Assembly: GCA_964430565.1 (NCBI GenBank)
Contig: CAYSFD010000057.1
Span: forward strand, 23,218 to 87,217
Reading direction: 5' to 3'
Length of the DNA: 64,000 nucleotides
From: an uncultured Enterobacteriaceae bacterium
GTDB taxonomy: Bacteria; Pseudomonadota; Gammaproteobacteria; Burkholderiales; SG8-39
The notes under the pieces: model-generated
Databases searched by the model: none
What the model saw: the letters and a program-made list of their open reading frames with translations, nothing else
Told to the model about the DNA's origin: nothing
Program-made: the position numbers and the translations under genes
In this document: positions 157-58,081 of the stretch, one piece after another
Numbering within the stretch: position 1 is the stretch's first letter
Layout: each line of letters begins with the position of its first letter

Positions 157-4090
<3,934 letters not shown>

Positions 4091-22114: not shown

Positions 22115-23263
22115 GTGGGCAGCATCGTCGTGGGCATGGTGGCCGGGGAGGCCTCCGGGGATTTTCTCGGAGCTCATCTAATCGCCGCGCTGCGCAAACG
22201 CGTTCCCAATTTGCATTTTGTCGGCATTGGCGGCCCGAAAATGGAGGCGGAGGGTCTCGATGCCTGGTTCCCGATGGAAAAGCTCGCGGTACGCGGCTAT
22301 GTCGAGGTGCTCCGGCATTTTCCAGAAATCTTCGCGATTCGCCTGAAGCTCGCACGGCGGCTTGCCGAAGTCCGGCCGAGACTTTTCATCGGCATCGATG
22401 CCCCTGATTTCAATCTCTCGCTCGAGCGCAAGCTCAAACGCGAAGGCATTCCGACCGTCCACTACGTGAGTCCGTCGCTCTGGGCCTGGCGCGGCGGGCG
22501 CATGTCCGCGATCGCCGCGTCGGTCAACAAGATGCTGGTGCTGTTCCCGTTCGAAGAGCCGCTGTACCGCAAGGCGGGGGTGCCGGTCGCCTACGTCGGC
22601 CATCCCCTTGCGGATGCGACTTCGGAACTCGACGGTACCGAAGCGGCAAGAGAGCAGTTGCGGCTGCCCGCCGCACGCAAGGTCATCGCCCTGTTGCCCG
22701 GGAGCCGGCAGTCGGAAGTCCGATACATGGCATCGACTTTCGTGCACACCGCCAAGCTGATCGCGGTGCGGCAGCCTGGGGTGCACTTCCTCGTGCCTTT
22801 GGTGACCCGCGAGACTCGCGCCATTTTCGAGGAAGCGATGTACGCCGCCGATGCGGGGGAATTGCCGCTCAGCATTCTGTTCGGCCACGCGCGGGAGGCG
22901 ATCGCGGCTTGCCACGTCGCGCTCGTGGCAAGCGGGACCGCAACGCTTGAGACTGCGCTCGCCCGCAAACCGATGGTGATCACCTACAAAGTGCCCGAAC
23001 TTACTTATCGGCTGATGTCGAGGATGGCGTACCTGCCCTGGATCGGTCTGCCCAACATCATCGCCGGCGAGTTCATCGTACCGGAGATTTTGCAGCACGA
23101 TGCGACGCCCGAAAACCTCGCCCAAGCGGTGCTGAATTCGCTCAATGACCCTACGGTGAACCGTCGCCTTCCGGAACGCCTCGAGCAGATACGGCAGCTT
23201 CTCCGCCGGGACACGGCGTCCCGCGTTACGGAGGCGTTGCTGCCATGGCTGCAAGCCGCCTGA
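22115..23263 (+). CDS. lpxB: Lipid-A-disaccharide synthase
   Basis: In-frame part of ORF 21701..23263. GTG 22115 (alternative ATG 22136) gives ...[18 protein letters not shown], the LpxB N-terminal signature. Confidence 0.9.
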
Positions 23264-23829
23264 TCTGCGGCGTGGACGAAGCGGGCCGCGGTCCGCTCGC
23301 CGGTCCAGTCTTCGCTGCGGCTGTGATATTCGTCCCGGGAAAGAGGATGCCTGCGGGCATCGCCGATTCGAAAGTCATGAGCGCGAACAAGCGCGAGCGG
23401 GTCGCTGCCGTAATCAAGCAAAGAGCGCTCGCCTGGTCGGTCGCCTGGGCAAGCGTCGAAGAGATCGACCGCATGAATATCCTTCAGGCGAGCCTGCTCG
23501 CCATGCAGCGCGCGGTGCAATCGTTGTCGATTGCGCCTGATGAGGTCTTGCTCGACGGTCTGCACTGCCCCGCGCTTTCGATTCCGGCGCGCGCGATCGT
23601 GGACGGCGACGCTAAAGTCAAGGTCATTGCCGCCGCATCCATTCTTGCCAAGACGGAACGCGACGCTGAAATGTGCCGGCTCCATCAGCGATTTCCCCAG
23701 TATCGCTTTGACGAGCACAAGGGATACCCGACTCCCGAGCACCTTGAGGCGCTACGCCGGCACGGCGTGTGCGAAGTCTATCGCCGCAGTTTCGGCCCGG
23801 TACGGGAGCTTCTCGAGCGCCGTGGTTGA
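23245..23829 (+). CDS. rnhB: Ribonuclease HII
   Basis: 194 aa. Catalytic N-terminus [15 protein letters not shown]. Confidence 0.93.
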
Positions 23830-24788
23830 GGGGATGGGCGCGGCTTGAGTTCAGCGAGCAGCTTTCTCAGACCTTCCTGTTCTGCGCCGGGTCGAAACAG
23901 AGGGCTTCGGGCTGTAAGGAGGCGCCTGAGGCGGGCGTGATATGCCGGATCGCGTAGCGCGCGTCGAATCTGGTGCGCGAGACCGCGCTCATCGGCGAGC
24001 CGGTAGTAGCCGGGGTAGCCGCGGCCGAGCATGCCGATGTTCCCGGAGACCCTGGAGGCGATCACCGGCGTCCCGGCGGCTGCGGCCTCGCAGATGACGT
24101 TGGCGCCACCTTCCATGCGCGAACTCACCACGAGCGCGTGGCTGCGCGCGAGCCGGCGCAGCGCCTCCGCATGCGGCACGTTGCCCAACCAGCGATAGCG
24201 CGGGTCGGCGCGCATCAGCTGCCGGGCCGTGCGCGCCATGTCCGGAGACAGCGCCTCGCCGAGATGAACGACTTCGAGCTCGGGAAGGTCGCGAAGATGG
24301 GCGAGGGCAAGCGCGGCACGGAAGGGGTCCTTCTCTTCCCGAAGGTGTCCCATTACCGCGACTCGAAAGTGGCTCGAAGGCGGTTCGACGGAGGCACGGA
24401 CCTGCGCCGACTGGTGGATCACTCGGGTCTTGCGCCGCAATCGCGCGGAAAGCTCGAGCTTGCCCATGTCCTGCAAGACGACGAGCCGGTCGGCGAGCTC
24501 AAGCGAAGCCCGCGCATCCCGGTCTGTACGGATATCCCGGTAGAGATCCGTGCCCGTGAGCACCACAACCAGAGGTAAAGCGGGAAACCGTTGGCGAAAT
24601 TGAACGATAGCGTTGTGGCTGCGTCGCGCGTGCAACGCGATCATGGCGTCGGCCGCCCGCCCGTTCCAGCGAACCGAAACCTGCACGTTGTGTCCGAGCG
24701 CGCGCAGCATCCCGGCCCAGCGCACCGCAGTATGCCGGTTGCCGCTTCGCGAGCGTGCACCGGCCGGGGTGATCAACGCAATTTTCAT
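23778..24788 (-). CDS. senB: GT-B glycosyltransferase resembling selenoneine-pathway selenosugar synthase SenB
   Basis: ORF 23778..24941. The internal ATG at 24788 gives [36 protein letters not shown]-terminal GT1-like [20 protein letters not shown]. Divergently paired with an EgtB-like gene. The family call is from memory of the SenB/EgtB-like gene pairing, not from a search. Confidence 0.6.
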
Positions 24789-24807
24789 GTTATGTTTGGG
24801 CTGCTCT

Positions 24808-26103
24808 ATGGTATTCGACTCCGTGCATCCCGCACCCGACACGCTGTCGTGGCAGCTGCAAAGCGCGAGGCGGCGTACCCGCGCCCTTACGCAGGATCTC
24901 AAGGGTGCGCAATTGTTCGGCCAAAAACTTGCGATCGTCAACCCGGTGCTGTGGGAACTGGGACACGTCGCCTGGTTCCAGGAACGCTGGTGCTTGAGAC
25001 TGCGCCCCGACGAGTCGCTTTCCGAGAGCTTGCTTGGCGGCGCAGACGCGCTCTACGACTCCGCGGCGGTGGCACACGACAAACGCTGGGACCTGCCGCT
25101 GCCGAGCCTCACGGCGACGCTCGCCTTCCAAGATCGCGTTCTGGAAAGAGTGCTCGCACGGATCGAGCGCGAGCCCGACAACGAGTGGTTTCTCTATTTT
25201 GTGCGGTTGGCGCTGTTCCATGAGGACATGCACGCGGAGGCGTTTCACTATACGCGCCAGACGCTCGGTTATGCAGACCCCCTTGCCCCCGAAAGTTCAG
25301 GGAAGCAAGGAAATGAGAATGGGCTTCAAGGCGAGGTGGAAATGCCGGGTGGGACGTTTCTTTTCGGCGCCCCGCGCAATGCGGGCTTCCATTTCGACAA
25401 CGAAAAATGGGCGCACCACATCGAAGTCCAGCCCTTCCGCATAGCGCGGGCGCCGGTGACCAACAAGCAGTACCGCGAGTTCGTGCGCGAGGGCGGGTAC
25501 CGGCGTCGCGACTGGTGGTCTGGCGAGGGGTGGCTTTGGCGGGAGCAGGCGCAGGCCGACGCGCCGCGTTACTGGGTCGAGAAGGGGGGCGCATGGATGG
25601 AACGCCGCTTCGCCGATTGGGTGGGCCTCGAGAACGATCTCCCGGTCATGCACGTCAACTGGCATGAGGCAAGCGCCTATTGCCGGTACGCGGGGAGGCG
25701 CCTGCCGAGCGAAGCGGAATGGGAATTCGCTGCATCGCTTTCCGGCAACGGGGGCAAGCGGCGCTATCCCTGGGACGACGCCGTCGCCGACGGCACGCGC
25801 GCTAACCTGGATGGGAGCGGCCGCGCGCCGGTGAGTGGATTCGCAGGAGGAGACAGTTTCAGTGGCTGCCGCCAGATGCTCGGCAATGTCTGGGAGTGGA
25901 CCTCGAGCTCATTCGGGCCCTATCCGGGTTTCGTGCGCGATCCCTACCGGGAATATTCCGAGCCGTGGTTCGGGACCCATAAAGTATTGCGTGGCGGGAG
26001 CTTCGCGACGCCGGCGCGGCTCGTCCACAATACCTGGCGAAATTTTTACACTCCGGATCGCGGCGATGTCTTCGCGGGGTTCCGCACCTGCGCGATCGAG
26101 TGA
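24808..26103 (+). CDS. senA: DinB-like + FGE-sulfatase-fold nonheme-iron enzyme (EgtB/SenA-like sulfoxide/selenoxide synthase)
   Basis: In-frame part of ORF 24613..26103, ATG 24808 (alternative 24787). DinB-type metal ligands WELGHVAWF and FHEDMHAE. C-terminal FGE domain (HVNWHEASAYCRYAGRRLPSEAEWEFAA, GNVWEWT, VLRGGSF). Confidence 0.6.
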   Translation: MVFDSVHPAPDTLSWQLQSARRRTRALTQDLKGAQLFGQKLAIVNPVLWELGHVAWFQERWCLRLRPDESLSESLLGGADALYDSAAVAHDKRWDLPLPSLTATLAFQDRVLERVLARIEREPDNEWFLYFVRLALFHEDMHAEAFHYTRQTLGYADPLAPESSGKQGNENGLQGEVEMPGGTFLFGAPRNAGFHFDNEKWAHHIEVQPFRIARAPVTNKQYREFVREGGYRRRDWWSGEGWLWREQAQADAPRYWVEKGGAWMERRFADWVGLENDLPVMHVNWHEASAYCRYAGRRLPSEAEWEFAASLSGNGGKRRYPWDDAVADGTRANLDGSGRAPVSGFAGGDSFSGCRQMLGNVWEWTSSSFGPYPGFVRDPYREYSEPWFGTHKVLRGGSFATPARLVHNTWRNFYTPDRGDVFAGFRTCAIE

Positions 26104-37570: not shown

Positions 37571-37676
37571 TTTTGCGAGAGAATTCCGAACTCGCAAGGG
37601 AGCGCTATTGCGCCCCCGCTTGAACAGCCCATCAGACACCCCTGACATTCCGACAAATGTGACCGACTCTTCTGTT

Positions 37677-38273
37677 ATGAGCGTCCCGATGATCTTTCTC
37701 GTGCGACCCGGTGAGACGACTTGGACCCGGGAAGGACGACAACAGGGGCACCTTGACTCGCCATTGACGTCCAAGGGCATCGCGCAGGCGCGAGCCGCTG
37801 GACAGGCGCTGCGGAAAGTGCTCCCCGAGGGCCAGCACGTTTGTCTCGAGACCAGTCCCATCGGTCGGGCACGGCAGACTGCAGCCCTCCTGTGCGCCGA
37901 GTTGGTGCTTGACGTGAACGCCCTCGTGGTCACGCCGCTCTTGATCGAGCATCACCTGGGCGCCTGGCAGGGTCTCACGAACGCCCAGATCGACAAGCAG
38001 TATCCGGGGGCCCGGCGGGCGCGCGAGGAGAACAAGTGGAACTACGCGGTGCCGGGCGGCGAGAGCTATGCGCTCGCTTATAAGCGCGCCCAGCAATGGC
38101 TGGCGCAGAAACGTCACGCCCCGGTGACGGTGGCCGTGACGCACGAAATGTGCAGCCGTGCCCTTCAAGGGGCCTATGCCGGGCTTACGCCTGCGGAAAC
38201 GCTGGTTCGCACTCATCATCAGGGTCGCATCTACTGGCTACACGATGCTCAGATAGAGGAGATTCCGTGCTGA
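37677..38273 (+). CDS. Histidine phosphatase (phosphoglycerate mutase-like) family protein with a substituted catalytic His
   Basis: In-frame part of ORF 37608..38273. The family layout is present (LVRPGETTWTREGRQQGHLDSPLT, later VAVTHEMCSRAL), but the RHGE motif reads RPGE. Confidence 0.75.
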   Translation: MSVPMIFLVRPGETTWTREGRQQGHLDSPLTSKGIAQARAAGQALRKVLPEGQHVCLETSPIGRARQTAALLCAELVLDVNALVVTPLLIEHHLGAWQGLTNAQIDKQYPGARRAREENKWNYAVPGGESYALAYKRAQQWLAQKRHAPVTVAVTHEMCSRALQGAYAGLTPAETLVRTHHQGRIYWLHDAQIEEIPC

Positions 38274-38391: not shown

Positions 38392-40356
38392 ATGAATAGA
38401 TCCGAAGGACCGCGTGAACTTTCCGTGCAGCCCGGCTCGCGGTCCGGTTCCCTATCGTCACCTGAACGAATCGGCAAATACGAGATTCAGGCCGTGCTTG
38501 GACGGGGCGCGATGGGCGTCGTCTACAAGGGCTACGACCGCGGCATCGCGCGCAGCGTGGCGATCAAGGCGATCGAGAAGTCCTCCCTCGGCGCGAGCGA
38601 ACTCAGGCACGTCATTCAGCGGTTCCGGCACGAGGCGCAGGCCGTAGGGCGGCTCGTGCACCCGCGTATCGTGCAGATCTACGACTACGGCGAGGACGGC
38701 GATACCGCCTACATCGTGATGGAGCTCGTCAACGGCAAGACGCTGCACGAGCACCTGTCGCAGAAAGTTAAGTACGAAATTCGCGAGGTTGGCGAGATCG
38801 TGCGGCAGCTTCTCGACGGCATCGGCCACGCGCACGCCGAAGGGGTCGTGCACCGCGACATCAAGCCTTCGAATGTTCTCCTGAACAGCGACGGCCGCAT
38901 CAAGATCAGCGACTTTGGCATCGCGCGCCTCGACTCCTCAAGCCTGACGCAGGTGGGGGATGTCCTCGGCACGCCGTATTACATGGCCCCCGAGCAGTTC
39001 CTCGGCGTCGAAGTCAACGCGCTGGCGGATATCTATTCAATCGGCGTGATTGCCTACGAACTCCTGACCGGCAGGAAACCGTTCGCCGGCAATGCCGCGA
39101 CCGTAATGCAGCAGGTCCTCAACGAGCCGTTTCCCGATCCGTCGCAGTTGAACCCGCGGTTGTCGCCGCTGATGGACCGGGTGCTGCACAAAGCGCTCGC
39201 CAAGAACCGCGACGAGCGGTTTCAGAGCGCCGGTGAGTTTTCCCAGGCGTTTCACTCGGCGATCGATGCGTCTCTCAGCGTGGGCGCGGTCGAGCCGGCG
39301 TCCGCAGGACCCGGTGCTGCGGCGCTGCTCAGTGCGGCGCGGCTCCTCAGCATCCAGCCCGCGACCGTGGCGGCGCCGTCGAGCGAACTCGAGTTGCAGG
39401 CCGCGACAGGCGATAGTGCGATCAGCCTTGACACAAGCGTGAGGAAAGCCCGAATGCTCGTGATCGACGACGAGGAGCGCATACTGACTGCGCTGAAGTC
39501 GCGGTTCCGCAGCCGCTACCACGTGTTTACCACCGCGGACGGCAACAAGGCGCTCGAATTCATGCGCAAATATCCCATGCACGTGATCGTCAGCGACCAG
39601 CGCATGCCAGTGATGGCCGGGGTGGAGTTGCTGCGCCAGTCGCGAGAGATTTCGCCGCGCAGTGTGCGGATACTGCTGACCGGGTACTCCGACCTCGCCG
39701 CGATGGTGGGCTCGATCAACGACGGCGAGGTGTATCGCTTTGTCAGCAAACCTTGGGACAACGATGAGCTGCAAACTATCGTCGCCGAGGCAGTCACGAT
39801 CGCGCTCGAGCTTGCCGACACCAAGACGGCGGCGGTCGAGCTGCCGCAGCGCATGGAGGCCGGTGTCCTCGTGATCGCCAAGAATGAGGAAATCTTCAGG
39901 GTTGTGCGCGAGCTGATCGGCGAACTTTGCCCGGTCGTCTATGCCGCGGACGTCGACGCCGCGCTCGGCGCGATGGAAAAACAGGAAATCGCGGTTCTGA
40001 TCTCCGATTTCGAAGCCGGGGACGAGCAGTTGAGCGCGATGCTGAGGCTGTTGAAGCAGGAGAACCCGCAGATACTCACCATACTTGTCACAGCGGCGTC
40101 GGACTCCGAGCTTGTGATCGAGCTCATCAACCAGGTGCAGATTTTCCGTTTTCTCAACAAACCGGTGAACGTGGGACTGCTGAAGCGCCATATGCACGCC
40201 GCGCTGCAGCGTTATCTGACTTTCAAGCAGACGCCGCAGCTCACCCGCGAGCACTCCGTGCAGCCTTCGGAGGAGATACGCGAATCCGTGGTGGGCCAGC
40301 GCATCCTCGACAGCGCGAGGACCTTGCGCGAAAGGTGGTTCGCCGACAACCCCTGA
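38392..40356 (+). CDS. Hanks-type Ser/Thr protein kinase fused to two C-terminal response-regulator receiver domains
   Basis: 654 aa. Kinase motifs GRGAMGVVYKG, VAIKAI, HRDIKPSNVLL, DFGIA, GTPYYMAPEQ. REC1 has VIDDEE...VIVSDQRMP...ILLTGY...FVSKPW. REC2 has VIAKNEE...VLISDFEAG...ILVTAAS...FLNKPV. Confidence 0.88.
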   Translation: MNRSEGPRELSVQPGSRSGSLSSPERIGKYEIQAVLGRGAMGVVYKGYDRGIARSVAIKAIEKSSLGASELRHVIQRFRHEAQAVGRLVHPRIVQIYDYGEDGDTAYIVMELVNGKTLHEHLSQKVKYEIREVGEIVRQLLDGIGHAHAEGVVHRDIKPSNVLLNSDGRIKISDFGIARLDSSSLTQVGDVLGTPYYMAPEQFLGVEVNALADIYSIGVIAYELLTGRKPFAGNAATVMQQVLNEPFPDPSQLNPRLSPLMDRVLHKALAKNRDERFQSAGEFSQAFHSAIDASLSVGAVEPASAGPGAAALLSAARLLSIQPATVAAPSSELELQAATGDSAISLDTSVRKARMLVIDDEERILTALKSRFRSRYHVFTTADGNKALEFMRKYPMHVIVSDQRMPVMAGVELLRQSREISPRSVRILLTGYSDLAAMVGSINDGEVYRFVSKPWDNDELQTIVAEAVTIALELADTKTAAVELPQRMEAGVLVIAKNEEIFRVVRELIGELCPVVYAADVDAALGAMEKQEIAVLISDFEAGDEQLSAMLRLLKQENPQILTILVTAASDSELVIELINQVQIFRFLNKPVNVGLLKRHMHAALQRYLTFKQTPQLTREHSVQPSEEIRESVVGQRILDSARTLRERWFADNP

Positions 40357-51189: not shown

Positions 51190-51735
51190 CTACTTCTTCG
51201 CAGATGGAGATCGCCCTCTGAGTGCTTCAGCCAGCTTCGGGTCGAGTTTTTCCAACTGATCCAGGGCCGCCTTAGCCTCTTCGAGCTCCCCAATCCTGAT
51301 AGAAACGGCGCCCAGTTCAAACCAGCCACGAGCGAACTCGGGCTCAAGGCGCACGGCCTCGCGGTACCCCTTCATTGCCTGGTCCAGCCGACCCGCATCC
51401 CGGTAGGCTTCGCCGAGCAGGAAAAAGGTGATGTGGGAGCTGCGGCCGACGGTGCTGGCTCGCTCCAGGGTCTGCGCGGCGCGGCCCGGTTGCTTGGCAA
51501 GCCGCTGAGACTCCCCGAGCAGGTTCCAGGCGCCGATGTCCTCGGGATTGCGCTGGGTGACGGGCGAAAGCATCAAGATGGCCTGCGCATAGTCGCCCCT
51601 GCGCAGCCATGCGTAACCGGCTATGACCCCCCAGTCAGAATTTGCCGGGTCGCTCCGCTGCCGCTCTTCGGCATAGCGGACCAGTCCGGCCCAGTCCCGC
51701 TTGCGGTTCAGGTCGGCAATTCGCTCCCGATCCAC
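51190..51735 (-). CDS. Tetratricopeptide repeat protein (probable lipoprotein; true start likely upstream of 51735)
   Basis: 181-aa ORF from GTG 51735 with TPR-like repeats ([66 protein letters not shown]). The same frame stays open upstream and encodes a lipoprotein signal (see findings). Confidence 0.75.
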
Positions 51736-51871
51736 AAAAATATCTCCACGCCCGACGAGGGCGACCGCAGGGAGCGGATCGATCGGAGGTCCAAGCTCCT
51801 CCGGCTGGCTGGCGCATCCGGAAAGCGAAATACAAGCCGCGAAGGCCGCGATGAGCGTCCTGGAGCGGAGG

Positions 51872-52063
51872 TCAGACTTTGTTCTGATAGACGTAGGCTT
51901 GCTGCTTGACCTTCGATTCCCCGGCGCGCTTCAGTGCGTCGGGGTCGAGTTTCTTGTCCCACCACAGGGCCCGCCCTCTTTTCTGCTCCTGGACGATGTG
52001 CGGCTTTTCCTGGAGCAGCTCGCGGATCATGCGGGTGAGGTCGGATTCGTAGGGTTGCGCCAT
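51872..52063 (-). CDS. DUF3460 family small protein
   Basis: In-frame part of ORF 51872..52243. ATG 52063 gives a 63-aa protein, [42 protein letters not shown].., resembling DUF3460 proteins of betaproteobacteria. Confidence 0.7.
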
Positions 52064-52133
52064 GGTCGAAAAATCCAGTCTGGTGCGAATTATACGCTCG
52101 CGCGGACCGTTGGGCGCCTGAGGGCAAGCCTTC

Positions 52134-52167
52134 TTGCCAAACGGGCATGGACTGTATATAAATACAG
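52134..52167 (+). promoter_or_regulatory. lexA promoter with overlapping SOS (LexA) box
   Basis: TTGCCA (52134-39), 17-nt spacer, TATAAA (52157-62). Canonical LexA box CTGTATATAAATACAG (CTGT-N8-ACAG) at 52152-52167. GGAGG RBS at 52172-76. Confidence 0.8.
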
Positions 52168-52180
52168 ACATGGAGGCCCC

Positions 52181-52780
52181 ATGACCGAAGAGCTTACCCC
52201 CACGCAACAGAAAATTCTCAACTTTGTCCGCAAGACCATCCAAAAGACCGGTTTTCCGCCCACCCGCACGGAAATCTCCGAGGCATTCGGCTACAGCTCA
52301 GCCAATGCCGCCCAGGAGCATCTGCGCACTCTGGAGAGAAAAGGCGCGATCGAGCTGACCCCGAGCGCCTCGCGCGGCATCCGCCTTTCCGATGGCTTGG
52401 GACTGCCGTTGATCGGCCGCGTCGCCGCAGGCAGCCCCATCCTCGCAGAAGAGCATATCGAGCGGCGCTGCCAGGTCGATCCCGCCCTGTTCCAGCCGCG
52501 CGCCGACTACTTGCTGAAAGTCCGCGGCATGAGCATGCGCGATGCCGGAATTCTCGATGGCGATCTGCTCGCAGTGCACCGCACACGCGAGGCGCGCTCG
52601 GGCCAGATCGTGGTGGCACGGGTGCATGACGAGGTCACGGTAAAGCGCCTGCGCCGCCGCGGCAACGCGGTCGAATTGCTTCCGGAGAATCCCGAGTTCA
52701 AGACTATCGTCGTGGATCTGCGCGAAGATGATTTCGCCATCGAAGGTCTCGGCGTCGGTGTGATCCGCCAGCCTCTTTGA
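52181..52780 (+). CDS. lexA: LexA repressor
   Basis: In-frame part of ORF 51701..52780, ATG 52181. Winged-helix N-terminus ([30 protein letters not shown]), Ala-Gly cleavage site (RVAAGSPI), Ser/Lys dyad (GMSM...VTVKRL). Confidence 0.94.
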
Positions 52781-52807
52781 CGCTTGCTTTTTCGCAGACT
52801 GCTATCC

Positions 52808-53527
52808 ATGGCGGGCAGGCCTTTCTCTTTCGCCGCTCTGCTCGAGCGCCCCGACATCTGGCGCGGCGGCAGTTTGAGTCGGGCCGGCACGCCGACGGTT
52901 CCAAGCGAATTTCCCCGACTTGACGCCGAGCTTCCGGGCAGCGGCTGGCCTGCCGGCGCGCTGACCGAGATCCTGCCCGCGCACGAAGGCATCGGCGAGA
53001 TGCGCCTGCTCGGCCCCGCGCTCGCTGCGCTATCGAATCGGGGGCTGTGGCTCGCCTGGATCGCCCCGCCCCATCTTCCCTACGCGCCGGCGCTCGCCGT
53101 GGCGGGAATTGATATCGGCAAGATTGTCATCGTGCGCACCGCCTCCGCGAAAGAAACGCTCTGGGCAACCGAACAGGTGCTCGCCTCGAACGCCTGCGGT
53201 GCGGTGCTCACTTGGCCGCGGTCGGTGAAGTACGCCGATTTGCGGCGGCTGCAAATCGCCGCCGAAGGCGGCCGGGCGCCGGCCTTCCTGTTCCGCTCCC
53301 CGGAGGCTGTCGGCGAGTCCTCCCCTGCTCCTCTCCGGATTGCACTCAGCACCGCGGCCGGTGGCCTTGAGGTACGCATTCTCAAGCGCCGCGGCGCCCC
53401 CCTCGCCCGCCCCATCCTGCTGCCGGCGATGCCACCTGCCGTGCGCGGTAAAAACCATTATGTGGATCGCTATTCGACTGCCGCAACTGCCGCTCGAGAT
53501 TTTCCTCCGCGGCTCGTCCACGCCTGA
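52808..53527 (+). CDS. imuA: Translesion DNA synthesis-associated protein ImuA (SulA/RecA-like)
   Basis: ORF 52784..53527, ATG 52808. ALLERPDIWRGG...GWPAGALTEIL is typical of ImuA. Position upstream of imuB-dnaE2. Confidence 0.85.
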   Translation: MAGRPFSFAALLERPDIWRGGSLSRAGTPTVPSEFPRLDAELPGSGWPAGALTEILPAHEGIGEMRLLGPALAALSNRGLWLAWIAPPHLPYAPALAVAGIDIGKIVIVRTASAKETLWATEQVLASNACGAVLTWPRSVKYADLRRLQIAAEGGRAPAFLFRSPEAVGESSPAPLRIALSTAAGGLEVRILKRRGAPLARPILLPAMPPAVRGKNHYVDRYSTAATAARDFPPRLVHA

Positions 53528-54881
53528 GCCCTTCGCTGTCGAAGAGCGGCACCGCGTTTTCGCCTGCGACCGCAAGGCACTCGCGCGCGGCGTTCGCGCC
53601 GGCATGGCCGTTTCGGCGGCGCTCGCCTTAGCGCCCCGGCTGAGCGTTGCGCCGCGCGATCCTGCGGCGGAAACCGAGGCTTTGCTCGGCGTGGCCGGCT
53701 GGGCGGCGCAGTTTACGCCCGGCGTGGCGCTTGAGTTTCCCGATTGCGTATTGCTCGAAGTCTCGGGGAGCTTGAAGCTCTTCGGCGGCCTGGAGCCGCT
53801 CCTTGAACGCCTGCGCCGAGGGCTTAAGGAAATGGGGTGGAGCACGACGCTCGCCGTCGCTCCCACGCCGCGTGCGGCTTTCTGGCTTGCCCTCGCCGGA
53901 AAAGGGGAATTCATCGGCTCGACGGCCGAGATTGAGCCGGCCCTCGCCTCATTGCCCGTCGAGATCTTTTGCCGCAACGACGAAACACGGGCAGCGCTCG
54001 GGGCGATTGGCGTCCGCACGCTGGGCGAGCTGCGCGCGCTGCCGCGCGATGGCGTGGCGCGGCGCTTCGGACCGGGGCTGCTCGACGAGATCGATCGCGG
54101 GCTCGGGTGTCTTCCCGATCCGCGGATTTTTTTCGTTCCACCAACGCGGTTCAGAGCAGCGATCGAACTTCCAGCGGAAGTCACCCAGGCCGAGGCGCTG
54201 CTCTTCGCCGCGAGGCGGCTGATCGTGCAACTCGCCGGGTTTCTCGCCGCGCGCTCGAGCGGCGTGCAGCGCTTTGTCCTCCGGCTCGGACATCGCGACA
54301 GGGCTGCTACCGAAATCACTATCGGCCTGGTCGCACCCTCCCGCGATGCCGAACACTTCACGGTGCTGCTGCGCGAGCGGCTTTCCGGTCTCGCAATCGC
54401 CGAACCGGTACGCGAGGTCATTTTGCAAGCCGATGACCTGGTACCGCTTTCCGGCCGCAACCTTGGGTTGCTGATCGAGCAAGGCAAACCGCCCGGCCGA
54501 TGGGAATCACTGGTCGAACGGCTGCGCGCACGGCTCGGCGGCGCGGCGGTGTGCGGCATTGCCGGCCGAGCCGAGCATCGGCCGGAGCGCGCCGGCGTGG
54601 TTGCCGATCTTGAAGCAAAGCAAATGCAGATGGATTTCGGCGAGCGTCCCTTCTGGCTGCTCGATCGTCCACGGCCGCTTGCGGAAATCGACGCCGTGCC
54701 GCATCACGACGGGCGGCTTGAGCTGCTCGTCGGCCCGGAGCGCATCGAGTCGGGATGGTGGGACGGGGACGATGTCGCCCGTGACTACTTCGTCGCCCGC
54801 ATGCAGAACGAAGCGCTCGTGTGGATCTATCGCGAGCGCCGCGGCGAAGGGGGATGGTATTTGCACGGTGTATTCGCGTGA
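53460..54881 (+). CDS. imuB: Y-family polymerase-like protein ImuB
   Basis: In-frame part of ORF 53340..54881. ATG 53460 gives MWIAIRLPQLPLEIF, typical of ImuB. 68-nt overlap with imuA. Confidence 0.87.
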   Translation: MWIAIRLPQLPLEIFLRGSSTPEPFAVEERHRVFACDRKALARGVRAGMAVSAALALAPRLSVAPRDPAAETEALLGVAGWAAQFTPGVALEFPDCVLLEVSGSLKLFGGLEPLLERLRRGLKEMGWSTTLAVAPTPRAAFWLALAGKGEFIGSTAEIEPALASLPVEIFCRNDETRAALGAIGVRTLGELRALPRDGVARRFGPGLLDEIDRGLGCLPDPRIFFVPPTRFRAAIELPAEVTQAEALLFAARRLIVQLAGFLAARSSGVQRFVLRLGHRDRAATEITIGLVAPSRDAEHFTVLLRERLSGLAIAEPVREVILQADDLVPLSGRNLGLLIEQGKPPGRWESLVERLRARLGGAAVCGIAGRAEHRPERAGVVADLEAKQMQMDFGERPFWLLDRPRPLAEIDAVPHHDGRLELLVGPERIESGWWDGDDVARDYFVARMQNEALVWIYRERRGEGGWYLHGVFA

Positions 54882-57800
54882 CATCGACCGCCCTACCCGC
54901 CTACGCCGAGCTGCATTGCCTGAGTAATTTCACCTTCCTGCGCGGCGCCTCGCACCCGGAAGAGTTGGTGCAGCGCGCCGCCGCGCTCGGTTATTCGGCC
55001 CTTGCGCTGACCGACGAATGTTCGCTCGCCGGTGTCGTGCGCGCGCACGTCGCGGCGAAGGATGTCGGCTTGCACCTCGTCATCGGCTCGGAAGTGCAGT
55101 TGAAGGACGGGCCGAAGCTCGTGCTGCTCGCGACCGACCGCGGCGGTTACGGCCATCTCTCGGAGCTCATCACCCGCGGGCGGCGCAGAAGTAAGAAAGG
55201 CAGTTATTCCCTCGGCTGGGAAGATTTCGATAGCGGGTTGCCGGGGTGTCTGGTGCTGCTCGCATTCCCTCACCCCTACCCTCTCCCGGAGGGAGAGGGG
55301 GAAAAACAAGCGCGCTCGATCGCCGAGCGCTTTCCCGGCCGTGCCTGGATCGCGGTGGAGCTGCTGCGCGGGCCCAACGACCGGGCGCGGCTCGCCGAGT
55401 TGCGCGAGCTAAGCAGGCGCTGCAGCCTGCCGCTGGTCGCCTCGGGCGATGTGCACATGCACCTGCGCTCGCGTCGGCCGTTGCAGGATACGCTGACCGC
55501 GATTCGCCTTCGCACGCCGGTGCACGCCTGCGGTCACGCGCTCCACCCCAACGCCGAGCGGCATCTGCGACTGCGCATGCGCCTGGCGCAGATTTATCCG
55601 GCCGAGTTGCTTGTCGAAACCGTGCGCATCGCCGAGCGCTGCCGTTTTTCTTTGGAAGAGCTGCGCTACGAGTATCCCGAAGAGCTCGTTCCTCCGGGCG
55701 AAACTCCGGCGAGCTGGCTGCGCAAGTTGACCGAAGAGGGATTGCAGCGACGCTTTCCCGCAGGCGCATCGCAGAAAATCCGCGATCTCATCGAGCGCGA
55801 GCTCTCGCTCATCGCCGAGCTTCGTTACGAGCCGTTTTTCCTGACGGTCCACGATATCGTACGCTACGCCCGCAGCCAGAGCATTCTCTGCCAAGGGCGC
55901 GGCTCGGCGGCCAATTCCGCCGTCTGCTACGCGCTGGGCATCACCGAGGTCAATCCGGCCAAGCAGGAGCTCTTGTTCGAACGCTTCATCTCGAAGGAGC
56001 GCAACGAACCGCCTGATATCGACGTCGATTTCGAGCACCAGCGGCGCGAGGAAGTCATCCAGTACATCTACCGCAAATACGGCCGCGAGCGCGCCGCACT
56101 GGCAGCCACGCTCATCACTTACCAGCCCAAGAGCGCGCTGCGCGACACAGGCAAGGCGCTGGGGCTCGATTTGCAGCAGGTCGATCGCATCGCCAAATCG
56201 ATCGCCTGGTGGGACGACCGCAGGGAGCTTGCCACTCGCCTGCGCGATGCGGGCTTCGATCCCGCGAGCCCGGTCATGCGGCGCCTCATGGCGCTTGCCT
56301 CCTCCTTGCTCGGTTTTCCGCGCCATCTGTCGCAGCATGTCGGCGGGTTTGTCATATCGCGAGGGGCCCTCGCGCGCTTGGTGCCGATCGAGAACGCCGC
56401 GATGCCCGAGCGCAGCATCATCCAGTGGGACAAGGACGATCTGGAAAACCTGGGTCTGCTCAAAGTCGATGTCCTGGCGCTCGGCATGCTCTCCACCATC
56501 CGACGCGGACTGGACTTCGTCAACGAGTTGCGCGGCAGCGCGATCACCATGGATAGCCTGCTGCGCGAGGAAGACCCCGCGGTCTACGAGATGATGCGGC
56601 ACGCCGACACCGTCGGAGTGTTCCAGATCGAGTCGCGCGCCCAGATGTCGATGCTGCCGCGGCTGAAGCCGGAGCATTTTTACGATCTCGTGATCGAGAT
56701 CGCGATCGTGCGGCCCGGACCGATCCAGGGGGACATGGTGCACCCTTATCTGCGGCGGCGCGCTGGCAAGGAGCCGATCGATTATCCCAACGACGCGGTG
56801 AGAAAAGTTCTCGAGCGTACTTGCGGAGTGCCGATTTTCCAGGAACAGGTGATGCAGCTCGCGGTGGTGGCGGCGGATTTTACCCCCGGCGAGGCCGACC
56901 AACTGCGCCGTGCGATGGCCGCCTGGCGCCGCAAGGGAGGGCTGGAGCCCTTCCACAAAAAACTCATGGACGGCATGCGCAAGAACGGCATCTCTACAGA
57001 ATTCGCCGAGCGCATCTACCGTCAGATCCTCGGCTTCGGCGAATACGGTTTCCCCGAGTCGCATTCGGTTAGCTTCGCCCTGCTCGCCTACGTGTCCGCC
57101 TGGCTCAAGCGCCACGAGCCGGCGGCGTTTCTCGCGGCGCTCCTGAACAGCCAGCCGATGGGTTTCTACACGCCCTCGCAACTGGTGCAGGATGCGCGCC
57201 GCCACGGAGTCGAGGTGCGGCCTGTAGACGCGTGCTCGAGCGAATGGGAGTGCATTCTGGAAAACACCACCCCGCCCTCCGCTGGCGCTTCGGGCACCCC
57301 TCCTTACCAAGGAGGGGAAGGTCTATTCCTCTCCTCCTCGAGGAGGGGTGGCAGCGAAGCTGCCAGGGGGGTGCAGCCCGCCGTGCGCCTCGGTTTCTGT
57401 TTGGTGCAGGGCTTGTCGCAAGCGGGCGCCGAGCGCGTTGTCGCCGCGCGAAAGATCCTATCGTTTGGCAGCGTTGAGGATCTCGCCCGGCGCGCTGAAC
57501 TGAACCGGCGCGACCTGAAGTGCCTGGCGGCTGCCGGAGCGCTCGAGGCGCTCTCAGGCCACCGTCGCGACGCCTACTGGCAGGTCGCCGGAATCGAAAT
57601 CGGCGCGCCCGTCCTGCGCGGCGCACCGGTGGCGGAGACTCCGCCCGTACTTCGCGCGCCAACCGAGGGAGAGAATCTCGTCGCCGACTACGCCAGCACT
57701 GGCCTCACGCTCGGGCGCCATCCTCTCGCGCTGCTGCGCCCGCGCCTTGCACGCATGCGCTTTGTCGCCGCAGAGGAGATCCGGGGGCTGCCAAGCGGCA

Positions 57801-58081
57801 GCGCGGTCCGGGCGGCGGGAATCGTCACCGGCCGTCAGCGCCCGGGCACGGCATCCGGAACGGTATTCGTGACGTTGGAGGATGAAACTGGTTGCATCAA
57901 TGTTATTGTCTGGCGCGATCTCACCGAATGCCAGCGCCGCGAGTTGCTCGGCGCGCGCCTGATGGGCGTCGAAGGAGTGCTTGAACGCGAAGGCGAAGTA
58001 ATCCATCTTGTGGCGAAGCGGCTGACGGACCACAGCGCCCTCTTGGGACAGATCGTCACGCAGTCGCGAGATTTTCACTAA
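54878..58081 (+). CDS. dnaE2: Error-prone DNA polymerase DnaE2 (ImuC)
   Basis: In-frame part of ORF 54821..58081. GTG 54878 (GTGA overlap with imuB) gives VTSTALPAYAELHCLSNFTFLRGAS (PHP domain). The Pol III alpha core follows. Confidence 0.93.
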   Translation: MTSTALPAYAELHCLSNFTFLRGASHPEELVQRAAALGYSALALTDECSLAGVVRAHVAAKDVGLHLVIGSEVQLKDGPKLVLLATDRGGYGHLSELITRGRRRSKKGSYSLGWEDFDSGLPGCLVLLAFPHPYPLPEGEGEKQARSIAERFPGRAWIAVELLRGPNDRARLAELRELSRRCSLPLVASGDVHMHLRSRRPLQDTLTAIRLRTPVHACGHALHPNAERHLRLRMRLAQIYPAELLVETVRIAERCRFSLEELRYEYPEELVPPGETPASWLRKLTEEGLQRRFPAGASQKIRDLIERELSLIAELRYEPFFLTVHDIVRYARSQSILCQGRGSAANSAVCYALGITEVNPAKQELLFERFISKERNEPPDIDVDFEHQRREEVIQYIYRKYGRERAALAATLITYQPKSALRDTGKALGLDLQQVDRIAKSIAWWDDRRELATRLRDAGFDPASPVMRRLMALASSLLGFPRHLSQHVGGFVISRGALARLVPIENAAMPERSIIQWDKDDLENLGLLKVDVLALGMLSTIRRGLDFVNELRGSAITMDSLLREEDPAVYEMMRHADTVGVFQIESRAQMSMLPRLKPEHFYDLVIEIAIVRPGPIQGDMVHPYLRRRAGKEPIDYPNDAVRKVLERTCGVPIFQEQVMQLAVVAADFTPGEADQLRRAMAAWRRKGGLEPFHKKLMDGMRKNGISTEFAERIYRQILGFGEYGFPESHSVSFALLAYVSAWLKRHEPAAFLAALLNSQPMGFYTPSQLVQDARRHGVEVRPVDACSSEWECILENTTPPSAGASGTPPYQGGEGLFLSSSRRGGSEAARGVQPAVRLGFCLVQGLSQAGAERVVAARKILSFGSVEDLARRAELNRRDLKCLAAAGALEALSGHRRDAYWQVAGIEIGAPVLRGAPVAETPPVLRAPTEGENLVADYASTGLTLGRHPLALLRPRLARMRFVAAEEIRGLPSGSAVRAAGIVTGRQRPGTASGTVFVTLEDETGCINVIVWRDLTECQRRELLGARLMGVEGVLEREGEVIHLVAKRLTDHSALLGQIVTQSRDFH
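55279..55299. repeat. Perfect 9-bp-stem hairpin inside the dnaE2 coding sequence (REP-like insert)
   Basis: CCCTCTCCC-GGA-GGGAGAGGG, translated in frame as part of PHPYPLPEGEGEK. Confidence 0.55.
57297..57364. repeat. Cluster of three hairpins inside the dnaE2 coding sequence (REP/MITE-like insert)
   Basis: CCCCTCCTT-ACC-AAGGAGGGG (57297-57317), palindrome CCTCCTCGAGGAGG (57333-57346), GGCAGC-GAA-GCTGCC (57350-57364). Translated in frame as the low-complexity stretch TPPYQGGEGLFLSSSRRGGSEAARG. Confidence 0.55.

Follow-up and report, generated by a model that had tools for sequence, protein, structure and literature searches.

Can SenB and SenA serve selenoneine biosynthesis at a locus where no gene for the supply of their substrates is in view, or does such a pair carry out another chemistry? 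The question is raised by a 64,000-nucleotide (64-kb) stretch of DNA from an uncultured bacterium (contig CAYSFD010000057.1, positions 23,218 to 87,217; hereafter the window, numbered from its first letter). A preliminary description of this stretch proposed that two divergent genes form a sen-like module, one encoding a glycosyltransferase and the other an iron enzyme of the SenA/EgtB type. In the known pathway, SenB converts selenophosphate and a uridine diphosphate (UDP) sugar, either UDP-N-acetylglucosamine (UDP-GlcNAc) or UDP-glucose (UDP-Glc), into a 1-seleno-β-sugar. SenA, a three-His Fe(II) enzyme, oxidatively couples this selenosugar to C2 of hercynine, and the selenoxide then spontaneously loses the sugar to leave selenoneine. 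Our analysis suggests, with a probability of about 80%, that the pair represents SenB and SenA of this known pathway in a split form, working with SelD and EgtD encoded at unlinked sites. The module proposed earlier is borne out: each of the two proteins scores above its curated equivalog cutoff and agrees with its family in all active-site tests.

The two genes and the interval between them are as follows.

23778–24788, minus strand: senB, predicted selenosugar synthase (Se-glycosyltransferase, GT-B fold), 336 amino acids (aa); ATG at 24788, stop at 23778
24808–26103, plus strand: senA, predicted selenoneine synthase (non-haem-iron selenoxide synthase; DinB and FGE folds), 431 aa; TGA at 26101–26103
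24789–24807: spacer between the divergent start codons, 19 bp

The coordinates, strands and divergent starts given earlier, like its other sequence-level statements, check out, the 19-bp distance included. Both starts, and with them the 19-bp gap, recur in the gene call made independently for a 5.4-kb Logan contig (metagenome run SRR9952630) that encodes identical SenB and LpxA proteins. An exact look-up of the SenA protein returned no record. If the alternative in-frame senA ATG at 24787–24789 were used, the start codons would overlap by 2 bp, the senB ATG lying at 24786–24788 on the opposite strand; such an overlap had been pointed out.

SenB

The senB product matches Pfam Glycos_transf_1 and Glyco_trans_1_4 and scores 409.7 bits on NCBIfam TIGR04348 (selenoneine biosynthesis selenosugar synthase SenB; curated cutoff 300 bits), covering profile positions 1–309 of 310. 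The next-best glycosyltransferase family model reaches 112.8 bits, and the best solved-structure matches are SenB enzymes at 214–220 bits. With hidden Markov model (HMM) E-values of 6e-123 and 3e-153 for the two proteins of the pair, chance open reading frames (ORFs) are excluded. The residues of characterised SenB correspond to those of the window protein as listed here.

Sugar triad: characterised N20, T23, E231; window N17, T20, E226
Sugar-binding motif: characterised EGGAHV; window EGGANV
UDP ribose contact: characterised E239; window E234
Selenophosphate pocket: characterised N20, H58, R61, T83, T85, R155; window N17, H53, R56, T78, T80, R150
Catalytic Lys (Se–P cleavage): characterised K158; window K153

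In addition, D81 of the window protein matches the characterised D86. Thus every sugar, selenophosphate-pocket and catalytic residue of SenB that is supported by structure and mutagenesis is present. The sugar triad, the EGGAxV motif, the selenophosphate pocket and the catalytic Lys are the same in SenBs whose genes are linked to senC and in those whose genes are not. The glycosyltransferase can be regarded, on profile and residue evidence, as a true member of the SenB family, not merely a "-like" protein.

The last ~20 residues are covered by neither the SenB model nor any of the solved structures. This C-terminal tail (about residues 315–336) is basic and non-conserved, and it causes the 3' ends of senB and the convergent rnhB gene to overlap by 52 bp (23778–23829). 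A 201-aa antisense ORF inside senB (23973–24578, plus strand) was rejected as a high-GC artefact and not a gene, despite its G+C content at third codon positions (GC3) of 0.76. This GC3 is above that of many real genes, so that naive gene picking on GC3 prefers the antisense ORF over senB.

SenA

The senA product consists of a Pfam DinB_2 domain (residues 16–127) and an FGE-sulfatase domain (174–427). It scores 510.7 bits on NCBIfam NF041186 (selenoneine synthase SenA; curated cutoff 420 bits), 337.8 bits on the EgtB model TIGR03440, under its cutoff of 360, and 148.5 bits on the OvoA N-terminal model. For calibration, SenAs from complete senC- and egtD-containing clusters score 467–469 bits on NF041186 and a Massilia SenA scores 523. 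The profile comparison suggested earlier therefore places both proteins in the sen families, SenA passing its own threshold and failing that of EgtB.

The published composite motifs are xNEH--HRHxHYYN(F/Y)(F/Y)R for SenA, ...YMQAYR for OvsA and xSDH--RRHQHYYNWDR for type I EgtB (EgtB-I). Of the 17 positions, 14 could be mapped, all except the initial "x" and both gap positions, and they read N45, E50, H53, H90, R93, H138, M141, H142, Y380, Y383, N412, F413, Y414 and R418. All 14 fit SenA, and neither OvsA nor EgtB-I. The ELGH and HEDMH sequences noted earlier as metal-ligand contexts hold the iron-ligand histidines, H53 in WELGH and H138 and H142 in HEDMH. These three residues and Y380 align with H51, H134, H138 and Y377 of EgtB, the three-His triad and the catalytic Tyr. 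The hercynine triad Y/N/F is formed by Y383, N412 and F413. The thiol-binding residues R87 and D416 of EgtB are replaced by H90 and Y414 in the selenosugar pocket, and replacement of this pair by His and Phe/Tyr is a hallmark of SenA (Kayrouz et al. 2022).

Compared with the type I EgtB of Mycolicibacterium thermoresistibile (4x8b), the window enzyme shares the DinB and FGE folds, the three-His iron site, the catalytic Tyr and the equivalents of the hercynine-binding residues Y380 and N414. It differs in that S43, D48, R87, Q137, W415 and D416 of EgtB-I have become N, E, H, M, F and Y. On these grounds the iron enzyme, too, is assigned to the SenA family proper and is not merely SenA-like.

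The same two enzyme families make up the senABC cluster of Variovorax paradoxus DSM 30034 (Kayrouz et al. 2022; 8k5i for SenA, 8jjq and 8fbx for SenB). The composite motif of the window SenA is the same as that of V. paradoxus except for F to Y at one position that allows either, and the catalytic, sugar-binding and selenophosphate-pocket residues of the two SenBs are identical. Overall similarity to the V. paradoxus-type solved enzymes is moderate (phmmer, ~273 bits for SenA and ~217–220 bits for SenB). The window pair lies between rnhB and a trmH-family gene, and its 431-aa SenA is a long form with a ~49-residue segment (310–358) that is missing from V. paradoxus SenA but retained by EgtB and OvsA. 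SenA enzymes fall into two length classes, a long one of ~412–434 aa from diverse phyla, including the window (loci L001–L017 among those described below), and a short one of ~360–410 aa typified by V. paradoxus and Massilia (loci L018–L029). In a neighbour-joining tree the short-form clade with Variovorax and Massilia stands apart from the long-form clade that includes the window SenA, and OvsA branches beside the long forms.

Partner genes and the proposed split pathway

The preliminary description reported neither selD/senC nor egtD next to the pair, and this absence extends to the whole window. The tblastn references were SelD, EgtD and putative selenate-binding proteins encoded at related sen loci, with identities confirmed by NCBIfam, and no homologue was found in the 64 kb (best E = 0.11). 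For SelD the best E-value was 0.33, and a search of the window for the SelD motif GxGxK was negative too. Under the three-gene criterion, selD within 5 kb of an egtB homologue and a tigr04348 gene, the locus counts as a two-gene senBA module. The missing co-localised senC leaves the membership of both enzymes in their families unaffected. These families are curated and characterised, and standard NCBI annotation would name both proteins correctly.

Such an arrangement has precedents. Of 2,353 TIGR04348 genes, only 827 were accompanied by the two partners at a distance of 5 kb or less, and most sen clusters are without a co-localised egtD, hercynine being siphoned from the canonical egt pathway (Kayrouz et al. 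2022). In Marinobacter vinifirmus the ovs and senBC genes lie apart on the chromosome and ovoselenol is still made (ovoselenol preprint). A literature search for senC-less sen loci returned no dedicated discussion of them.

We propose the following scheme for the split pathway. SenB would couple selenophosphate to a UDP-sugar with cleavage of the Se–P bond, promoted by Lys153 (K158 of the characterised enzyme). SenA would use the selenosugar to make the C2–Se bond to hercynine, and the selenoxide would then eliminate the sugar, with selenoneine as the predicted product. Since no senC lies in the 64 kb, selenophosphate would have to come from an unlinked SelD. Hercynine would likewise be supplied by an unlinked EgtD, as in most sen organisms.

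Related sen loci

A SenA scan of species-representative genomes returned at least 80 loci, 24 of which have both senA and senB; the counts here and below are among the matches listed. The pair is divergent in 16 of the 24. Start-to-start spacers in these 16 are estimated at ~10–130 bp, mostly below 55 bp, and in three loci (L019, L021, L025) the senB and senA starts may overlap, depending on which start codons are chosen. In Massilia isolates with senC downstream of senB the spacer is 33–41 bp. The tight spacer is a family-wide trait and not peculiar to the window, where it had been taken for an unusual layout. SelD/SenC adjoins the pair in 13 loci and is not in the available flanks of the other 11. 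EgtD is co-localised in seven, leaving 17 without it, and a selenate-binding protein is encoded in five. The absence of egtD, considered noteworthy earlier, is thus the rule here as in the original paper. Both the layout without senC and egtD and the tight divergent spacer are common among sen loci. A common arrangement has senC directly downstream of senB (e.g., L018, L029, L021), a position taken in the window by the 3' end of rnhB. Long-form SenAs of the same clade as the window enzyme adjoin senC and egtD in L009, L012, L013 and L017, and senC in L003.

The genes that flank the pair in the window are housekeeping genes, and their earlier identification agrees with the NCBIfam and Pfam matches.

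23245–23829, plus strand: rnhB (RNase HII), flanking housekeeping gene; NCBIfam NF000596, 265.9 bits
26100–26882, plus strand: SpoU/TrmH-family RNA methyltransferase gene, context and not a pathway enzyme; Pfam SpoU_methylase and an MRM3-like substrate-binding domain

The closest relatives among the matches listed (L001; L002, JAUXMZ01; L005; L006, CAMBGJ01; L014, CAWGHV01) group with the window in the neighbour-joining tree. The order lpxB-rnhB-senB|senA-trmH is kept in L001, L002, L006, L014 and a further locus, L031, and where contigs reach it extends to lpxD-fabZ-lpxA-lpxB-rnhB-senB|senA-trmH(-ppsR-ppsA). On the 3.5-kb contig of L005 only senB|senA-trmH is visible. In all six loci a TrmH-family gene follows senA, and tblastn found no senC in the available flanks, which reach to ~10 kb. 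In Burkholderiales without sen genes, rnhB is presumably followed directly by the trmH-family gene, so that the sen pair would be an insertion at the rnhB–trmH junction.

No identical genome is among the matches listed. The nearest relative there, L001, comes from the metagenome-assembled genome "Betaproteobacteria bacterium BP_43" (VBDM01000059), whose SenA and SenB are 75% and 78% identical to those of the window. It shares the order bamA-lpxD-fabZ-lpxA-lpxB-rnhB-senB|senA-trmH-ppsR-ppsA-smpB, the 19-bp spacer with the alternative ATG, and the 4-bp stop–start overlap of senA and trmH (7255–7258 in L001). Unlike the window, it is a 13-kb contig, and it belongs to a different species, with neighbouring genes 76–91% identical. 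The rnhB/senB overlap is also 52 bp by the gene coordinates of L001; L002 has none.

Between the window and L002, identity is 66% for rnhB, 61% for lpxB, 52% for trmH, 55% for senB and 56% for senA, the Sen proteins thus tracking the neighbouring housekeeping genes. The ratio of nonsynonymous to synonymous substitution rates (dN/dS) against L001 comes to 0.17 (senB) and 0.13 (senA), with 0.11–0.17 for lpxA, lpxB, rnhB, trmH and ppsR; the sen genes are under purifying selection, as their housekeeping neighbours are. The GC3 of senB and senA matches that of the flanking genes (window G+C, 62.7%). Taken together, the tracking identities, dN/dS and GC3 mark the pair as long established in this block, passed on vertically and held under functional constraint. 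By these measures it is not a recent insertion, nor is it a relic.

This lineage, from an uncultured, Burkholderiales-like betaproteobacterium of soil or freshwater, adds one to the ~1,500 known carriers of SenA (a later census counted 1,514 SenA-type sequences). The stability of senBA in a clade without a dedicated senC, inside a housekeeping block, suggests use of a general selenophosphate pool. The same arrangement suggests that counts based on clusters of three genes within 5 kb miss some of the selenoneine producers.

Further observations were made on the related loci. In L003 (582–2855), L012 (6702–9002) and L013 (3612–5864), SelD carries a fused pyridine nucleotide-disulfide oxidoreductase domain at its N-terminus (TIGR03169, "Nterm_to_SelD"), which may equip the pathway with a built-in module for the reduction of selenium. 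Tandem senA paralogues occur in L010 (8566–9879 and 10001–11281) and L015 (3772–5043 and 5090–6319). One of the L015 copies has Glu and Tyr in place of the usual Asn and His of SenA (motif EEHY...), and the L015 flanks contain no senB.

Weighing the alternatives

The following points weigh against a split selenoneine pathway. No selD or egtD turned up for this genome, of which the 64 kb and a 5.4-kb metagenome contig are available. A whole clade that shares the synteny of the window is without senC within ~10 kb. In addition, the top-scoring solved structure for the window SenA is OvsA (entries at 303.6 and 294.2 bits) and not V. paradoxus SenA (273 bits), with EgtB at 250 bits. We nevertheless favour the split pathway; of the two possibilities left open by the preliminary description, split pathway or variant chemistry, the latter finds no support at the level of residues.

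Variant chemistry without selenophosphate survives best among the alternatives but is improbable. It supposes that SenB uses another acceptor, such as thiophosphate, sulfide or a different nucleophile, that SenA makes a sulfur or other analogue, and that no SelD takes part. The absence of senC from the window and from the flanks of the six related loci fits such a scheme, all the more as the pair is nevertheless under purifying selection. On the other side, the SenB pocket and catalytic Lys are identical to those of the characterised enzyme and of senC-linked homologues, and the selenosugar-pocket residues H90 and Y414 of SenA are canonical. Furthermore, thioglucose is published as a very poor SenA substrate that leads to a dead-end sulfoxide and not to ergothioneine.

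An extension of this idea, which we also consider improbable, is a SelD-free, Burkholderiales-like lineage in which senBA has become fixed in the lpx-rnhB-trmH block and is kept under strong purifying selection, and in which another selenium or sulfur donor feeds an undescribed route to a selenoneine- or ergothioneine-like compound. Against a lineage devoid of SelD, Burkholderiales commonly possess a stand-alone SelD for making selenocysteine or selenouridine. A senBA-only lineage in a block of essential genes would be of interest only if its genomes lack selD, and would otherwise not surprise a specialist.

The rank of OvsA among the solved structures raises the question of an ovoselenol-type module, in which an OvsA would selenylate C5 of free histidine with no need for EgtD (ovoselenol preprint). 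The absence of egtD from the window and the branching of OvsA beside the long-form SenA clade would agree with it. OvsA of Halomonas utahensis and Marinobacter vinifirmus (8u41/8u42) also shares with the window enzyme the long-form architecture, the NEH/HR/HxH/Y scaffold and the selenosugar pocket. However, the residues that discriminate the two enzymes, M401, Q430 and A431 in OvsA against Y, N and F in SenA, and the swap of which to Y/N/F turns OvsA into a hercynine-using, C2-selenylating SenA (ovoselenol preprint), are Y383, N412 and F413 in the window. The top-scoring structure, 8ux5, itself bears Y/N/F at the three sites altered in OvsA-YNF, a published variant with the behaviour of a SenA. 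The lower score against V. paradoxus SenA arises because the latter is a short-form enzyme without the ~49-residue segment. On NF041186, OvsA (8u41 residues 28–468, retyped from the alignment) scores 422.1 bits, far from the 510.7 bits of the window protein. The annotation of the window contains no OvsM-like N-π-methyltransferase, the sole adjacent methyltransferase being of the SpoU/TrmH family. Finally, OvsA has been reported nearly exclusively from aquatic gammaproteobacteria (ovoselenol preprint), and the window host is a betaproteobacterium. We therefore judge an ovoselenol module very unlikely. With a cutoff of 420 bits, NF041186 barely separates OvsA, and automated annotation may name ovoselenol enzymes SenA.

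Decay of a former three-gene sen cluster, non-functional after loss of senC, would fit the rnhB 3' end at the place where senC usually lies downstream of senB. This is very doubtful, as at least five species keep senB and senA in intact reading frames (47–78% identity), dN/dS is like that of lpxA, lpxB and rnhB, and all catalytic residues are retained. The one candidate for a decayed sen pair, L031 (CAWDIV010000015.1), was rejected since all of its genes, housekeeping genes included, are split over several frames. Frameshifts in every gene of the contig indicate indel errors of long-read assembly, not pseudogenes.

An ergothioneine EgtB beside an unrelated GT4 glycosyltransferase is extremely unlikely: the TIGR03440 score comes near its cutoff, but the SenA model scores far higher, six EgtB-I positions are all replaced, the glycosyltransferase reaches at most 112.8 bits on any family other than SenB, and the five EgtB-type loci (L022, L024, L026–L028) are without senB and, in four cases, with egtD.

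Regulation

No clear Shine–Dalgarno sequence could be read on either side of the spacer. A promoter scan of 4.3 kb returned two sigma-70-like sites where shuffled sequence would give 0.5, both being matches to the consensus only. One of them is a weak candidate for the senB promoter.

24912–24941, minus strand: sigma-70-like match TTGACG-18-AACAAT (9/12) inside the senA coding sequence, ~124 nt upstream of the senB ATG; candidate only

The scan gave no candidate for a senA promoter, and no convincing -10/-35 pair was seen by eye in the spacer. Transcription of senB probably starts from a promoter inside senA. If so, short divergent senB/senA spacers would offer a compact model of overlap between promoter and coding sequence.

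At the other end of senA, the GTG start of the methyltransferase gene (26100–26102) overlaps the senA TGA as GTGA. This overlap, kept in L001, suggests that senA and trmH are co-transcribed and translationally coupled, and senA is probably transcribed together with the downstream gene. A gene of secondary metabolism thus appears to be coupled in translation to a housekeeping RNA methyltransferase gene. All of these regulatory indications are weak.

Genomic context

Apart from a few short ORFs, the annotated genes of the window are housekeeping genes or unrelated to selenium and ergothioneine. Scans for tRNA genes and Rfam families gave none in the window, and hence no tRNA-Sec. In order, the genes on the two sides of the pair are these.

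Upstream: galU, hpt, methylthioadenosine/methylthioinosine (MTA/MTI) phosphorylase, def, glnD, map, rpsB, dxr, rseP, bamA, lpxD, fabZ, lpxA, lpxB, rnhB
Downstream, first part: trmH-family, ppsR, ppsA, smpB, ratA, guaB, guaA, TctC-family receptor, kinase
Downstream, second part: mtnA, mltG, holB, tatD, lexA-imuB-dnaE2, liv-type ABC transporter

The names ppsR and ppsA derive from matches in related loci and not from a family search. From the usual betaproteobacterial order we take the interval between rpsB and dxr to hold tsf-pyrH-frr-uppS-cdsA, and that between bamA and lpxD to hold skp.

Two ORFs of coding-like composition on the minus strand are without family assignment: one of 355 aa (2100–3167) had no match in NCBIfam, the only collection searched for it (E ≤ 1e-20), and one of 195 aa (37632–38219) had none in NCBIfam (E ≤ 1e-15) or Pfam (E ≤ 1e-6). 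At 38392–40356 lies the gene for a 654-aa protein in which a Hanks-type Ser/Thr kinase domain at the N-terminus is joined to a response-regulator receiver domain (residues ~352–470). Further downstream, an SOS mutagenesis cassette (51701–58081) comprises lexA, an ImuB-like Y-family polymerase (53340–54881) and the error-prone polymerase DnaE2 (54821–58081). The longest ORF of lexA has an N-terminal extension, and its true start may lie further downstream.

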